Below, in pieces: positions 227 to 36,973 of a stretch of 64,000 bases of DNA. Origin of the DNA: a virus; IMG/VR virus record IMGVR_UViG_3300032053_000003, positions 94,392 to 158,391 of that record; one strand, given 5' to 3'. Both the position numbers and the translations under genes were made by a program. Below the pieces are notes generated by a model. That model worked only from the letters and a program-made list of their open reading frames with translations. It ran no database searches and was not told the origin of the DNA. Every line of letters begins with the position of its first letter. The stretch's first letter is position 1.

Positions 227-412
227 ATGACAAAAGCCAAAGAAGTTCTCAAAGCACTTCATGAGACCGATGATAAGAAGGCTGATAGTTGGAAGGTCTT
301 CATCAATGGTAAGGACACTGGTATTGTAGAGACCAACTATGAGTATGCCAACAAATATTGGGCAAAAGTAGCTGTAGCTAAGAAGGCAGTCATAGAGTTG
401 AAAAAACAATGA
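227..412 (+). CDS. small hypothetical protein, MSKA-tag family (MTKAKEVLKALHE…)
   Basis: ATG 227 lies 6 nt after an AGGAG SD. The track's 221 start is TTG. The N-terminal tag motif is present. Confidence 0.65.
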   Translation: MTKAKEVLKALHETDDKKADSWKVFINGKDTGIVETNYEYANKYWAKVAVAKKAVIELKKQ

Positions 413-424
413 GGAGATTGATCT

Positions 425-754
425 ATGTCCAAAGCAGAAACTTTACTCCAGTCACTCTCTGAGGCTGAAGAAGAAAAGGGAAAGACCTTATATTTTTCTA
501 CACAAAACGGTAACAGATTCGTGATATCCCTTGAACCTGGTTCACTGGGGCATGTCATGAAGTACAATGAGCATACCTTCCCTCTTCCACATACCTCATG
601 GGTAGTCACAGGTTTCTCTAAAAACTCACAGAAGAACAGTCCTGATTTCAAAGTCACTCCTGATCTTACCAGGGAAGCTATTAAAGGTAAGTATGTGTGG
701 GACCTGGATCATGGTACTACAAGAAGGTGGGGAGATAAAATAAGCAAGTACTGA
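425..754 (+). CDS. hypothetical protein, MSKA-tag family (MSKAETLLQSLSE…)
   Basis: ORF track entry. A GAGGAG SD lies upstream. Tag motif present. Confidence 0.65.
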   Translation: MSKAETLLQSLSEAEEEKGKTLYFSTQNGNRFVISLEPGSLGHVMKYNEHTFPLPHTSWVVTGFSKNSQKNSPDFKVTPDLTREAIKGKYVWDLDHGTTRRWGDKISKY

Positions 755-763
755 GGGGTAGAA

Positions 764-817
764 ATGTCGAAAGCCAAGGAAGTTCTCAAAGCACTTTATG
801 AAACTGATCGGGGATAA
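764..817 (+). pseudogene. truncated duplicate of the N-terminus of gene 227 (MSKAKEVLKALYETDRG*)
   Basis: About 90% nucleotide identity over ~40 nt to 230-270. Stop after 17 codons. Confidence 0.45.
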
Positions 818-833
818 ATTCTAGGGGGATGCA

Positions 834-33644: not shown

Positions 33645-34775
33645 ATGCAGTCAATCAATAAACAGCTATTCCTTAACGTAACTATTGATGGTCCAGATAA
33701 GAGGCACCTGGATGTTGATTCTCATGGTATTGGGTCTATCTGGATCATAGAGGATGTCTCCCAGTTGGTTCCTGTATGCACTCTTGTGTATTCGGAGACT
33801 TACTCTGAGTTTAGTGAGCTGTTTCCTCTTCTGGGTAATGAAACAATGACTGTGGATCTTGGTCTGAGTAAGGATAAGTATCGTATTTTTAAATTTGCTT
33901 ATTCCTCCTATGAGACAAGATCCATAGGTGCTCTCTTGGTTCGTAACAAGGAGATAGTGACAAACTGGATAGACTCCGATTTTACAAAATTACGTGAATA
34001 TCCTAAGGTAATGCATTATACACAGACAGCAGTTTCAGACATTGTGAAGACTATTACTGCTGGGTTACCTATAGAGATTGATAGCTCCAAAGGCTCTAAT
34101 GATTACTTCATAAACAATAATGTCCTTGGAGAGACTCTGAAGGATCTTGCTCAAGAGGCTATCAGTGCTGATGGTTCTACTTTTATGTTTTTCAAGAATA
34201 ACTGCAAGTATAAGTTTAAAACTCGTAACTCTCTTATGAGACAGAATACAAAAGCTTCCTTCATCCATGGTTATGACCTTACACAATTCAGTATCTTTGG
34301 TAATGACAGGTCTTTGTGGACAAATCCTGAATCAAATATTATAGGCTACTCATATGAGAAGGGTGAGAACTTTACTGTTGATAAGCCAGTAGCAACTGTG
34401 AAAAAGGGTAAGGCATCCTTTGGTAAGAGTGTTCCTTTTGGTCAAGGAACAGATATTACTGCCAGAACCCAGTATGAGGGTACTAGGCATCTCCATAAAG
34501 CTGAAGCTTTGGCTACAGGGGCTACTGAAGGGTTTATGGATTCAGCATTGAGGATGACATTTGTAGCTCTTGGTCAACCATTCGTATCCTGTGGGGATGT
34601 TGTAGAGGTATCAGTTGCTCCCAGTTTAAAGCAGTTAGGTAAGCAGAATATGATGATATCTGGGAAATGGTTTGTAGAGAAGATAGTCCATCATGTAGCC
34701 AAATTCAATTACATGATTAAGATATTCTGTTCCAAAGCTAATACTGATTTTAGCAGAAGGAAGGCTGTCCTGTGA
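33645..34775 (+). CDS. baseplate hub protein (P2 gpD / Mu gp44 / T4 gp27-like)
   Basis: 376 aa. Directly upstream of the spike gene. Confidence 0.45.
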   Translation: MQSINKQLFLNVTIDGPDKRHLDVDSHGIGSIWIIEDVSQLVPVCTLVYSETYSEFSELFPLLGNETMTVDLGLSKDKYRIFKFAYSSYETRSIGALLVRNKEIVTNWIDSDFTKLREYPKVMHYTQTAVSDIVKTITAGLPIEIDSSKGSNDYFINNNVLGETLKDLAQEAISADGSTFMFFKNNCKYKFKTRNSLMRQNTKASFIHGYDLTQFSIFGNDRSLWTNPESNIIGYSYEKGENFTVDKPVATVKKGKASFGKSVPFGQGTDITARTQYEGTRHLHKAEALATGATEGFMDSALRMTFVALGQPFVSCGDVVEVSVAPSLKQLGKQNMMISGKWFVEKIVHHVAKFNYMIKIFCSKANTDFSRRKAVL

Positions 34776-35869
34776 GTGGTGTTGATACTTCTCAAAATAA
34801 GATAACAGGCAACTGGAGAGCTATTGTAAGAGACAATCTCGATCCTTATAAGTCAGGAAGGGTTAAGATCGACATTATCCCTCTGGGCTTGAAGAATATG
34901 TGGGCTGAACCTGCTTGTCAGGTTGGTGGATCAGATGTCCACGGAAGCTATATAATTCCCAGAGTAGGGGATAAGGTCTTTGTTTTCTTTGATGGGAATA
35001 ACATAAATCACCCTATTTATTTTGCTACATCACCTTCTCAGAAGGATATACCTAAGGCATTTTCAGGAGAGGTAGATCCTGTAATAAAGACCAGGAATAG
35101 TAGTGTTATGGTCACCCCAAAATTTTCTGAACCTACTACTAATGCTTCTGTTGAATATCCTTATGGTCAGGGGGTAAAGTTTCCTGGAGGTGTTCTTCTT
35201 ATTGTAGATGAGTCCAGTGGTAAATCCAAAGTTGCTATGTACCATCCCATAGGATCTTATGAGGAGTTTGCTGGTGATGGTACTCATGTAGTTAGGGTTG
35301 CCAAGGATGATTATGAAATAATAATTGGGAAGAAGTTTATGTATGTTGGTGGTTCCATGACAGATATGATCATGGGGAATGTGGATACTACTGTCATGGG
35401 TAATGTTACTGAGAATATTGTTGGTTCCATGACAGATATGATTATGGGGAATGTGGATACTACTGTCATGGGTAATGTTACTGAGAATATTGTTGGTAAT
35501 CAGAGTACAACAGTTGTAGGGGCTTTGAATATCTTAGCAGCTACTTACTCAATAGCCAGTGCTTTTGGATACCAGAAATCTGACAAGACTAAATCTATCA
35601 CAGTAATGACTACTCCTGTGGAAACTACCTCTCTAGTAAGCTTGTCATTTATGGCTCCTATTATAACTTTTACAGCAGATATTTTTACTTTCGTAGCACG
35701 AGAAGTATTAAACTTTGTAGCTCCTATTGTAAATATAACAGGTGACTTAGTAACCATAGGATCTGGACCTGTTAAAGCCCAAGCCCCTATCCTTACTGCT
35801 TTAACTGCTTTTTGTCCTTGGTGTGGTGGAAAGGTAGGTCCTGGTCTACCTACGGTTACCGCAGGATAG
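34772..35869 (+). CDS. baseplate spike protein (gpV/gp5/VgrG-like OB-fold plus beta-helix)
   Basis: N-terminus …WRAIVRDNLDPYKSGRVKIDIIPLG…GDKVFVFFDGNNINHPIYF is typical of Phage_base_V. The C-terminus carries a perfect 24-aa tandem repeat. Confidence 0.65.
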   Translation: MSGVDTSQNKITGNWRAIVRDNLDPYKSGRVKIDIIPLGLKNMWAEPACQVGGSDVHGSYIIPRVGDKVFVFFDGNNINHPIYFATSPSQKDIPKAFSGEVDPVIKTRNSSVMVTPKFSEPTTNASVEYPYGQGVKFPGGVLLIVDESSGKSKVAMYHPIGSYEEFAGDGTHVVRVAKDDYEIIIGKKFMYVGGSMTDMIMGNVDTTVMGNVTENIVGSMTDMIMGNVDTTVMGNVTENIVGNQSTTVVGALNILAATYSIASAFGYQKSDKTKSITVMTTPVETTSLVSLSFMAPIITFTADIFTFVAREVLNFVAPIVNITGDLVTIGSGPVKAQAPILTALTAFCPWCGGKVGPGLPTVTAG

Positions 35870-35872
35870 TAT

Positions 35873-36580
35873 ATGTCAAAAGCTGCTACTTTACTTAATT
35901 TATTTGAAGCTACTAATGTACAAAAAGTAAAGGATATTGCCAAGGAGTTGTTGGATAGATTCTTCTCAGAGTATGACCTCCCTATTCCTGATATAAAGAT
36001 TAAGAATAATTTGAATCCTAAGTGGTTGGCTAGGCATGTTTGTTTCAGTGCTAACAGGGAGAATTCCAATATTGAAGTTCAAAAATCCGTTTTGGATGAT
36101 GATAGAACCTTACGAAGAATAATAGCTCATGAGCTTATCCATCACTGGCAGTGTTTTAAAGAGAAGGATGAAAAGAGTTTTAACCCTGCCTATCGTAGAG
36201 CTATGAGGGCAATGGGGAAAGATACAGGACATGGTGAGAGTTTTGAGAAATGGGCAGAAAAGATTAACAGTGTCATGGGTGATAACTATGTAACCAAAAA
36301 GTCTGACCAGGAGTATCTCAAATCTCCATCTAAAGAGTTTTACTTGGTAATATCACCTCATGATAGTGGTAGATTTATATATGCATACTTTCAAAGACCT
36401 ACTGATAAAACAAAGAGACTTATTTATTTACATAAAGATGCAAAGGTCTTTAGGACAAATAATGTGAGATTTCTTCGTGGTCGTGTTTTTGGTACAAAGG
36501 GAGGTTGGTCTATTCCCTCTGATCAGGAAACTCAGGATACTCTGAAAGATATGTACAGTGGAGAAGGGATAAAGTTTTGA
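35873..36580 (+). CDS. HExxH zinc metallopeptidase-like protein carrying the MSKA tag (MSKAATLLNLFEA…IAHELIHHWQ)
   Basis: HELIH motif at residues ~85-89. Tag N-terminus. Inserted between the spike and other baseplate genes. Confidence 0.55.
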   Translation: MSKAATLLNLFEATNVQKVKDIAKELLDRFFSEYDLPIPDIKIKNNLNPKWLARHVCFSANRENSNIEVQKSVLDDDRTLRRIIAHELIHHWQCFKEKDEKSFNPAYRRAMRAMGKDTGHGESFEKWAEKINSVMGDNYVTKKSDQEYLKSPSKEFYLVISPHDSGRFIYAYFQRPTDKTKRLIYLHKDAKVFRTNNVRFLRGRVFGTKGGWSIPSDQETQDTLKDMYSGEGIKF

Positions 36581-36598
36581 TTAATAGTGAGGTGAGGT

Positions 36599-36973
36599 AT
36601 GAGTAAGGCCAAAGCACTTTTGGAGTTCCTCAGTGACTTTCACAAGGACTATGATTTTGTAAGTAAGGTAGGTAATCTCCCTATTGGAGATCTTAAACTT
36701 GATGATGGTGTAGGCATTGTTGATATTGAGTTACCTTTGGATGATGTGGACCCTCTTTCAGCTCAGGTAATAGTACCTCTCCATTTTACCTACGATGATG
36801 ACTACACACCTTCCATCAAAATAGACGTAGACAAGTACCTTGCTGCAGATGATGGCAACCCTGCTTATCTTAGTAAAGAAGGGAAGCAGAAGGTTGTGGA
36901 TTACCTCACATCCAATAAAGCTAAAATGGAAAATGATCTTGAGAAGTTTCTTGTGTCTGAAATGGAAAAATAA
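36599..36973 (+). CDS. hypothetical acidic protein, MSKA-tag family (MSKAKALLEFLSD…)
   Basis: ORF track entry. GAGGTGAGG SD. Confidence 0.6.
   Translation: MSKAKALLEFLSDFHKDYDFVSKVGNLPIGDLKLDDGVGIVDIELPLDDVDPLSAQVIVPLHFTYDDDYTPSIKIDVDKYLAADDGNPAYLSKEGKQKVVDYLTSNKAKMENDLEKFLVSEMEK

Follow-up and report, generated by a model that had tools for sequence, protein, structure and literature searches.

A short N-terminal tag on dozens of otherwise unrelated small proteins of a T4-superfamily jumbo phage, a candidate capsid targeting sequence

The IMG/VR virus record IMGVR_UViG_3300032053_000003 was analysed over a stretch of 64,000 nucleotides (positions 94,392 to 158,391, in the following called the window), in which dozens of small genes open with one short N-terminal peptide, here called the tag. 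A sequence-only reading of this DNA had likened the tag to the capsid targeting sequence (CTS) of the T4 internal proteins and had proposed that the phage packages or processes an unusually large set of tagged proteins. Since a gene identical to the window's was found on two metagenome contigs of 230,776 and 237,444 bp, the source is a jumbo myovirus of about 230 kb; the window starts approximately 18 kb into the contig, and the morphogenesis proteins encoded in it belong to the T4 superfamily. No cultured phage matched in a DNA search with the window, and within IMG/VR a single-protein scan for close relatives returned nothing and an alignment-based scan returned distant relatives only. The relatives used for comparison (L-numbered contigs) were drawn from metagenome assemblies, the only source from which the clade is known.

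Tagged genes of the window

The credible genes of the window all lie on the + strand. By a start-anchored scan combined with our own gene calls, 47 of them, encoding proteins of 59-235 amino acids (aa), were found to open with the pattern M-[STGN]-[KR]-[AS]-x-x-[FLV]-[LI]-x-x-Φ-E, in which Φ is a hydrophobic residue. Forty-five are located at 227-25998 and two at 35873 and 36599. Seven further tagged genes, preceded by untagged methyltransferase and Gp80-like genes, were found in the 3.4 kb directly upstream of the window, which brings the number to at least 54. The tag is present at every gene start named in the sequence-only reading, among them the twelve consecutive ones from 18754 to 21543; the literal pattern given there was too strict and matches 19 places only, because the glutamate floats between positions 10, 11, 12 and 13. 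Among the 47 tags, position 1 is M, position 2 is S (30), T (10), G (4) or N (3), position 3 is K (42) or R (5) and position 4 is A (41) or S (5). Position 7 holds L (20), F (19) or V (6) and position 8 holds L (30) or I (11); a hydrophobic residue follows at 10 or 11, and E is present at position 12 in 27 tags and at position 13 in 16.

The tagged genes, all on the + strand, are given below with protein length, N-terminal peptide and, unless said otherwise, the score in bits on a position-specific scoring matrix (PSSM) of the tag.

227 to 412, 61 aa, MTKAKEVLKALHE, 21.4
425 to 754, 109 aa, MSKAETLLQSLSE, 19.1
1210 to 1407, 65 aa, MNRSQQIISLSEE, 17.4
1404 to 1649, 81 aa, MNRAQQIISLSEA, 19.3
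1920 to 2249, 109 aa, MTKAGTLLSMLES, 24.0
2264 to 2497, 77 aa, MSKASNLVKILEE, 25.1
2525 to 2776, 83 aa, MSKAKEVLNLFED, 27.1
3437 to 3709, 90 aa, MSKAKKFLKE-S (10-residue form), 21.7
4669 to 5067, 132 aa, MGKAANLISMLEA, 23.2
5233 to 5769, 178 aa, MKSKAAVFLDIMEK, 19.9
5772 to 6134, 120 aa, GTG start, (M)VSKAGHFLSITED, 23.8
6198 to 6419, 73 aa, MSKAGQFIEDVKD, 19.2
9696 to 9974, 92 aa, MSKAGEVLKIINE, 23.2
10002 to 10316, 104 aa, MSKAGDFIKVHET, tag pattern kept by the L006 and L001 orthologues
10313 to 10597, 94 aa, MTKAQILLEKIKE, 20.5
10599 to 10868, 89 aa, MSKAKNLLDLLPK, without Φ-x-E, 24.0
11024 to 11353, 109 aa, MTKAKQVLNMLEG, 26.5
12404 to 12610, 68 aa, MTKAGKLLSLFEY, 23.9
12627 to 12827, 66 aa, MSKAKKFLGE-Y (10-residue form), 20.4
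12830 to 13141, 103 aa, MGKAKQLLHLLEY, 26.3
13138 to 13488, 116 aa, MNKSQSLLSKLNE, 18.3
16785 to 16964, 59 aa, MTKAELFLEKFNE, 21.2
17023 to 17235, 70 aa, MSKAKEFINISEA, 26.9
17239 to 17574, 111 aa, MSKASEFLLIVEATD followed by M, body phrog_9437
17595 to 18041, 148 aa, (M)KSSKANAFIKLYEE, 22.6
18754 to 18990, 78 aa, MSKAKEFMKLNEG, 22.2
18999 to 19205, 68 aa, MSKASDFLRKLNE, 25.5
19205 to 19399, 64 aa, MSKAKDVINLIES, body phrog_13300 from residue 18
19402 to 19659, 85 aa, MGKAKDFLNLTEA, 26.2
19669 to 19902, 77 aa, MSKAGDFLNE-F (10-residue form), 22.4
19912 to 20223, 103 aa, MSKAENLLNLLEK, 28.2
20226 to 20498, 90 aa, MSKASDVLALFES, 21.8
20491 to 20838, 115 aa, MTKSSKLISILEK, 19.8
20847 to 21077, 76 aa, MSKAKDFIKE-A (10-residue form), 22.5
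21088 to 21297, 69 aa, MSKAGDFLLNE-K, 17.3
21298 to 21546, 82 aa, MSKAKKFLEVAKE, 23.6
21543 to 21782, 79 aa, MTKSKNLISLLEE, 25.2
22026 to 22229, 67 aa, MSKAREFLEGTMK, 19.0
22674 to 23024, 116 aa, MGRAKDLVDGLEA, 17.8
23054 to 23362, 102 aa, MSKAENLARMLEG, 20.8
23567 to 23791, 74 aa, MSKAQDLLEMLKE, 28.7
23784 to 24044, 86 aa, MSKLQNLTNTLNE, weaker tag, 16.3
24055 to 24261, 68 aa, MSRARDLLQQIEE, 22.2
24920 to 25243, 107 aa, MTKSKQLLHLLEA, 25.9
25339 to 25998, 219 aa, MTRAKRFVTE-A, weakest tag, acidic body
35873 to 36580, 235 aa, MSKAATLLNLFEA, in the baseplate gene block, SprT-like, 25.5
36599 to 36973, 124 aa, MSKAKALLEFLSD, acidic, no family match, 19.9

In the protein of 5233-5769, residues 73-98 (MSKTKKVLAAAVLAAFMMVGSGAAHA) form a stretch resembling a Sec signal or a membrane helix, the first residues of which are tag-like.

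The PSSM was built without the Met column and used to scan the six-frame translation at a threshold of at least 12 bits. It gave 52 matches, all on the + strand and in frame, with 45 of the 52 at gene starts; as regards random internal occurrence, the seven non-start matches are all explained as a remnant, a C-terminal copy or copies in fused genes. Scores are bimodal: untagged N-termini reach 0.1 bit at most, and the leave-one-out median for tagged ones is 17.9 bits. Among internal positions, the 99.9th percentile lies at 4.6 bits. The tag is thus a discrete N-terminal peptide that is confined to N-termini. Its amphipathic character, which had been predicted, is moderate (mean hydrophobic moment 0.39 vs 0.26 for internal 12-mers). 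We rejected it as a Sec or Tat signal: it has just four or five hydrophobic residues, scattered among K, D, E and N, and no core of 7-15 residues. The N-termini of the head protease (MNRTKLVDAYE) and of the capsid protein (MDMNEKMLLEKY) were likewise rejected as tags, with scores of -6.9 and -10 bits.

Tag copies away from gene starts, all on the + strand, are the following.

764 to 817, remnant of 17 codons, MSKAKEVLKALYETDRG*, decayed and nearly identical to the start of gene 227, 18.4 bits
945 to 983, in-frame internal copy VSKARKLLKVIEE in the open reading frame (ORF) 834-1199, 23.3 bits
3166 to 3204, internal copy MTKAKQLIQTISE in ORF 2788-3426, with a Shine-Dalgarno-like GGGGA ahead of it, 19.0 bits
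4324 to 4362, tag-like peptide ESKAKKLISSLLD at the C-terminus of ORF 4042-4365, 18.2 bits
6430 to 7653, ORF of 407 aa that joins three or four tagged genes, once separate, in one frame, with internal copies at 6739-6777 (CNRAKDLSNLSED), 7000-7038 (FNRSRDLTALAEE) and 7294-7332 (MSRAKDITKLVES)

The decayed duplicate at 764-817 suggests recent duplication or recombination among tagged genes. The modules of ORF 6430-7653 are separate genes in the relative L001, the ORF itself recurs in the independent assembly L027, and one of its junctions (6733-6741, tcATGtAAC) is an ATGA stop/start overlap into which a single T was inserted. If the tags are cleaved in the prohead, such fusions would be harmless polyproteins.

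Tag codons, cargo bodies and gene turnover

That the codons of the tag vary, as had been claimed from the letters of the DNA, is borne out by the counts: Ser2 is encoded by TCN in 16 tags and by AGY in 14, and several synonymous codons are in use at every conserved position (Lys3, AAA 26 and AAG 16; Ala4, GCA 16, GCT 15 and GCC 10), with 9 and 14 different codons at the hydrophobic positions 7 and 8. Since Ser2 occurs in both the TCN and the AGY family, selection acts on the peptide. A nucleotide-level element, such as a translation-initiation enhancer, the site of a translational regulator or a recombination linker, of which the peptide would be a by-product, is hardly credible in view of these data. 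Such an element would fit the location of the tag directly after a strong GGAG ribosome-binding site and the over-use of AAA at codon 3 (62% vs 36% genome-wide), but not the nearly equal use of two unconnected serine codon families, the three codons of Ala4 and the diversity at positions 7 and 8. In addition, orthologues retain the amino-acid pattern though their variable positions have changed, and in-frame internal tag copies persist in fused genes.

The proteins behind the tag are unrelated to one another, as had been stated before: past residue 14 no mutual BLASTP similarity was detected at E<1e-3. Tagged proteins have a median length of 89 aa, and their bodies a median isoelectric point (pI) of 8.8 vs 5.3 for untagged proteins; the pI exceeds 8 in 26 of 47, and 14 of 47 are acidic. 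The protein in which an HExxH motif had been noticed is that of 35873-36580, which matches Pfam SprT-like (7.9e-10, domain from residue 27) and is a zinc metalloprotease of this kind. The other tagged bodies gave nothing significant in Pfam; in PHROGs few bodies match, all to families of unknown function, NCBIfam returned nothing credible, and a further PHROG search with 29 small proteins gave one informative match. The body of 25339-25998 is very acidic and of low complexity (net charge about -41) and is conserved across the clade; this protein may be a core component rather than an effector.

The tagged gene at 17239 offers a view of how the tag came to its place. Its residues 16-111 span the whole 98-position phrog_9437 profile (E=4e-31), and by tblastn the body was found in 62 cultured phages of Vibrio, Pelagibacter, Sinorhizobium, Pseudomonas and other hosts, in alignments that start at query residues 4-18, residue 1 being reached by none of the 25 records listed. 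Among 695 database homologues, the tag extension is present only in the 12 closest, which belong to the window's clade and read MSKAxEFLSIVEAT-DMTVAKEIL..., whereas homologues outside begin M(S)DMTVAKTIL.... In these alignments the ancestral N-terminus can still be seen behind the tag, so that the extension precedes the old start. In an AlphaFold2 model of the family, residues 3-14 form a helix (predicted local distance difference test, pLDDT, about 65) that a short linker joins to a body with pLDDT >95; a comparison of this model with PDB folds gave no match despite the confident body. The phrog_9437 family as such (homologues P0054-P0161) comprises proteins of about 98 aa with a conserved LGGNKF…MTGAK, in hundreds of phages of many hosts. 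The body of 19205 similarly matches phrog_13300 from residue 18. Taken together, the alignments show that the tag is a portable add-on to pre-existing proteins.

It is very improbable, on the other hand, that the tagged genes form one old paralogous family in which the N-terminus was conserved while the rest diverged, with no portable signal involved. The tandem arrays of small same-strand genes in the window would fit such a family, and the decayed duplicate at 764-817 and the near-identical tags on genes 1210 and 1404 point in the same direction. However, the lengths range from 59 to 235 aa, the bodies lack pairwise similarity, at least three of them belong to different outside families without tag (phrog_9437, phrog_13300 and SprT-like), and the ancestral start Met is still seen after the tag in the phrog_9437 family.

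The tag is a property of a clade. In L001, L006 and L015, whose capsid proteins are 85-93% identical to that of the window, it is present on most small genes around the head genes, and likewise on most small genes near the head genes of L026, a 247-kb contig of the same clade. The sets of tagged genes differ between these four relatives, and L001 favours M-N/S/T-R-A. Complete contigs of 230-247 kb in the clade are ERZ27247916 k141_351042 and JGI 3300047675 Ga0501914_00005. Sharing was compared for the window genes within 10 kb of the capsid gene (35 tagged, 14 untagged), as follows.

Shared with L006: tagged 10/35, untagged 8/14
Shared with L001: tagged 3/35, untagged 8/14
Shared with L026: tagged 15/35, untagged 10/14

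Tagged genes thus turn over faster than their untagged neighbours. The more distant L002 (44% capsid identity) has about four tagged genes only, all adjoining its protease and capsid genes (MRKSRDVLDAINEA, MKASTVLRAVNES, MRKSAVDLLEIMDKS), and no pervasive tag was seen in relatives of about 30% identity or in the Rhizobium phage. Tags cluster around head genes. The simplest history is that of a head-protein propeptide which later spread to many accessory genes in one clade.

Head protease, capsid and the Φ-x-E motif, with neighbouring genes

Two head genes of the window bear on the function of the tag.

13610 to 15178, + strand, prohead protease-scaffold gene; protease at about residues 1-187, T4 gp21 family
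15285 to 16709, + strand, major capsid protein of the T4 gp23 family (Pfam Gp23, 7e-14); propeptide at about residues 1-66

The gene at 13610, which had been named as a protease/scaffold gene, indeed encodes a head protease fused to a scaffold (phrog_207, 9e-20). Alone, the 13610 protein gave no match in the PDB by direct sequence search and none in Pfam at E<=0.1; a five-sequence profile of the protease domain matched the T4 gp21 structure PDB 5JBL (E=2e-6), and orthologous proteases match Pfam Peptidase_S77 (PF03420). The catalytic residues His82 and Ser141/142 are invariant, and so is L-V-E-S at 184-187, which may be an autocleavage site that frees the protease domain. In the scaffold part (14254-15178), a unit of about 35 aa (…GTPExIxEAL…YKxLG…) that contains one I-x-E-A is repeated about five times, followed by an acidic tail and a basic C-terminus (RRRNRKIQESKGKGYTPLSIFEQLISKR). 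The best cultured relatives of the capsid protein are Rhizobium phages of the RHph_TM30 group (32% identity). Its candidate maturation site I-P-E66|T (15474-15482) aligns with L-T-E65|A of T4; across 19 homologues, with identities as low as 41%, P65 and E66 never change.

The end of the tag corresponds to the specificity of gp21, for which cleavage after L/I-x-E, as had been stated beforehand, is documented in the T4 literature (PMC9026906). In 41 of 47 tags, the final Glu of a [LIVMF]-x-E is located at position 10, 11, 12 or 13, vs 5 of 49 untagged N-termini and 5.7% of internal windows. The residue after the tag glutamate (P1') is A, S or G in 19 of 41, against a background of 22% (p=6e-4). 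The T4 CTS is made up of residues 1-10 of IPIII, of which 4 and 7 are required for targeting and 8 and 10 for processing (PMC9026906). The sequence cited for it beforehand was correct: in the T4 record, both IPII and IPIII open with MKTYQEFIAE-A, and IPI opens with MKTFKEFTS.... In the register of the T4 CTS, the conserved tag positions are A4 (41/47), L/F/V7 (45/47), L/I8 (41/47) and Glu at 10-13, and five tags have the exact 10-residue form, e.g., MSKAKDFIKE-A. Of IPIII, just positions 5-8 (QEFI) are strongly similar to the tag profile (top 0.04%); T4 gp24 (MAKINELLRE) scores -2.3 bits.

Further evidence comes from the distribution of [LI]-x-E behind the tag. Expected counts were obtained from per-sequence shuffles, and label permutation served as a second test.

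Tagged bodies of the window: 20 observed vs 32.6 expected, p=0.005
48 tagged families from relatives, without a window homologue: 19 vs 31.3, p=0.006
Untagged neighbours of these 48 families: 41 vs 38.2, not depleted
Tagged bodies, pooled: 39 vs 63.9, z=-3.5, 1 of 2000 shuffles
Untagged proteins, pooled: 165 vs 144, z=+2.0

Label permutation between tagged and untagged proteins gave p of about 5e-5; when the untagged set was restricted to small proteins, p was 0.0015. Two positions after L/I, Glu is depleted more than any other residue in the window set, with no depletion of Asp, Lys and Gln, and spacings 1, 3 and 4 after L/I have no such effect. The scaffold part of 13610 is enriched in [LI]-x-E (11 vs 6.3 expected), as are the capsid propeptide (3 vs 0.7) and, as positive control, T4 gp22 (16 vs 5.8); mature T4 internal proteins have 0 vs 2.8 expected, and tail proteins have no such bias. 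Tagged bodies have an excess of S-x-E (z=+3.6) and A-x-E (z=+2.9), which speaks against the phiKZ-type specificity A/S/G-x-E. Avoidance of [LI]-x-E is expected only of bodies that encounter a protease with this specificity and have to withstand it; the pattern thus supports head-protease processing and argues that the bodies would be meant to persist and not be degraded like the scaffold.

The same evidence bears on two further explanations. In the first, the tag would be a docking helix for a partner outside the prohead, such as a phage or host chaperone, a degradation adaptor (with the tag as a degron for timed removal), or a factor of export or of import into a phage compartment. An amphipathic N-terminal helix is a generic protein-binding element (moment 0.39 vs 0.26; helix 3-14), the tagged genes resemble accessory or host-takeover genes in being small, of unknown function and of high turnover, and the best-conserved part, MSKA, differs from T4. 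We nevertheless regard this explanation as unlikely, because it leaves unexplained the tag-terminal [LIVMF]-x-E (41/47), the avoidance of [LI]-x-E in the bodies together with its enrichment in scaffold and propeptide, and the place of the L002 tagged genes beside the protease and capsid genes; moreover, no candidate partner was identified.

In the second, the tagged proteins would enter the prohead and be cut there, but as disposable core or filler that is degraded and expelled before DNA packaging and is not delivered. The T4 core proteins gp22, gp67 and gp68 are a precedent, being targeted, cleaved and mostly removed, and the conserved acidic low-complexity protein of 25339-25998 looks scaffold-like rather than effector-like. 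For the tagged proteins as a whole this is improbable, somewhat more so than a docking helix: proteins destined for degradation are enriched in sites (gp22, 16 vs 5.8; scaffold, 11 vs 6.3), whereas the tagged bodies are depleted (39 vs 64), as are the retained T4 internal proteins (0 vs 2.8), and high turnover and unrelated folds are unlike structural filler.

The window also encodes T4-like tail components, including a gp19-like tail tube, a T4_baseplate protein and the following.

26885, tail sheath
34772, gp5-like spike
37591, gp25-like protein, untagged
38292, Baseplate_J

The tagged gene at 36599 (124 aa) was considered as a gp25-like baseplate protein and rejected; the gp25-like protein is the untagged one at 37591. 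An untagged 216-aa protein with a classical signal peptide (MTMKRLLLTALIVLLLSSVSMA) and a fibronectin type III domain is encoded at 24258-24908 and conserved in L026. Near the head genes, 8294-9352 encodes a membrane-anchored protein with two PAS domains; the same locus in relatives (L002 1963-4029, L006 7023-7907) encodes hybrid kinases with PAS, histidine-kinase ATPase and receiver domains, or a receiver-domain protein. Two-component signal-sensing parts are unusual within a phage structural region.

Two hairpins follow the capsid gene.

16734 to 16760, + strand, hairpin GGGAGTCCCT-GAAGCTG-AGGGACTCCC, directly 3' of the capsid gene, read from the sequence
18053 to 18084, + strand, strong intrinsic-terminator-like hairpin 1.3 kb downstream, which closes the capsid-gene transcription unit

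The four tagged genes at 16785-18041, between both hairpins, would be transcribed by read-through from the capsid gene. A motif, GTTTCAGTCYC, occurs at 13500-13510, 26772-26806 (three tandem copies), 40231-40241 and 40609-40619 (8 matches vs 2.7 expected), in long intergenic regions upstream of the genes for the protease, the sheath and a 1576-aa tail protein. It may be a late promoter or a regulator site; in relatives it was not found when zero mismatches were allowed.

Proposed capsid loading and known systems

On balance, we consider it probable that the tag is a lineage-specific T4-like CTS which was expanded to more than 50 fast-turnover cargo proteins. Every computationally testable part of the sequence-only reading was supported. 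According to the proposed mechanism, the tag would form a short amphipathic N-terminal helix with conserved A4, F/L7, L/I8 and Φ10/11, by which new proteins would dock onto the scaffold core of the assembling prohead and become enclosed as the gp23-like shell forms. The gp21-family protease of 13610 would then cut the tag behind its closing [LIVMF]-x-E, the Glu of which is at position 10-13, and free the mature protein inside the head, and scaffold and capsid propeptide would be degraded at their many I/L-x-E sites. The mature proteins, small and mostly basic, would stay with the DNA and presumably be ejected into the next host, where they would act before phage gene expression. The portable tag has been attached to at least 54 accessory genes that are unrelated and turn over rapidly. 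Scaffold binding, actual cleavage, virion retention, ejection and cargo function are steps that we infer, and the anti-defence or takeover role of the cargo is a putative one.

Several points weigh against capsid loading by a T4-like signal. Homology between the tag and the T4 CTS is unproven, because on the tag profile the CTS of IPIII has a score of -6.5 bits, within the top 1.8% of random windows, and M-S-K-A, the best-conserved part of the tag, is not shared with T4; the resemblance may be convergent. Φ-x-E at positions 10-13 is absent from 6 of 47 tags, the depletion of LxE is strong only when pooled, and further i,i+2 pairs deviate as well (ExK, LxV). Two tagged genes lie in the baseplate block and not near the head genes. 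Untagged phrog_9437 proteins occur in many cultured phages of several hosts and genome sizes, where they are presumably not packaged, and can therefore function when made in the cell. Scans for sigma-70 promoters and terminators were at chance level and thus uninformative on the timing of tagged-gene expression. Packaging and ejection in this clade are wholly inferred, the scaffold is finite and would be contested by more than 50 cargo species, and we know of no phage that loads so many proteins via one signal.

More tentatively, it is quite possible that in this clade of T4-superfamily myoviruses of about 230-250 kb the CTS was turned into a general gene-capture device, by which any small gene that gains the tag joins a pre-packaged, injected set of more than 50 diverse and fast-evolving proteins. 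If so, this would be the largest injected set known of any phage, and one readable from genome sequence. As a rule, the discovery of injected proteins depends on virion proteomics, and hence on cultured phages. Should the tag be a capsid-loading signal, the clade's whole injected set, more than 50 unknown proteins including a SprT-like protease, would be visible in the sequence. Proteins injected with the DNA act before phage gene expression and are therefore prime candidates against host defences. If the gene-capture reading holds, the tag together with avoidance of [LI]-x-E would be a computable signature of injected effectors, probably including anti-defence factors, in uncultured phages. 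A capsid-loading tag would also show that phage proteins of the ordinary cytoplasmic kind can be fitted with a targeting peptide of T4 type, and it would provide a natural tag of 12 residues by which foreign proteins could be brought into large capsids. The test for cleavage-site avoidance is applicable to other phages with gp21-type proteases.

Short conserved peptides that direct unrelated cargo to the interior of an HK97-fold shell are known from encapsulins. Those cargo-loading peptides, however, are usually C-terminal, bind the shell directly and are not removed by a protease, and encapsulins neither package nor deliver DNA. In phage P1, an N-terminal segment of the anti-defence factor DarB suffices to load the protein or a reporter into the capsid for delivery (PMC9024508). 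The DarB signal differs from the tag in that it has 30 residues, serves one 250-kDa protein, which is loaded stepwise with other Dar proteins; no Φ-x-E processing has been described for it. The phages phiKZ, 201phi2-1 and SPN3US are also large myoviruses, with more than 50 head proteins, many of them packaged and ejected, and have a gp21-related protease that cuts after Glu in a three-residue motif. In the phiKZ type, however, this motif is A/S/G-x-E, whereas the window tags have L, I, M, F or V at P3. For SPN3US, 9 cleaved substrates were reported with propeptides of 20-254 residues and no common short tag, and 42 head proteins remain uncleaved (PMC10052503).

The mechanism proposed for the tag is that of the T4 CTS. 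Like the tag, a putative propeptide, the CTS is short, N-terminal and carried by otherwise unrelated, small, mostly basic proteins; hydrophobic residues at 4, 7 and 8, which in the window are candidate determinants, are followed by a Glu in L/I-x-E context (MKTYQEFIAE|A in T4; MSKAKDFIKE|A or MSKAKEFINISE|A in the window). Both phages combine a gp21-family protease with a gp23-family capsid protein whose maturation sites align, the mature cargo is depleted of internal L/I-x-E (T4, 0 vs 2.8; window, 39 vs 63.9 pooled), the internal proteins of T4 are basic, and cargo genes are poorly conserved among relatives. The differences concern residues 2-4 (K-T-Y in T4, S-K-A in the tag), the length of the CTS (10 residues, most window tags having 12-13) and the protease and scaffold, which form one fused gene in the window phage, unlike in T4. 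Of the two, only T4 has had packaging demonstrated by experiment. In the literature searched, no comparable tag expansion was described; T4 has three internal proteins (plus Alt and core proteins), compared with at least 54 tagged genes here, a scale that is unprecedented in the literature found.

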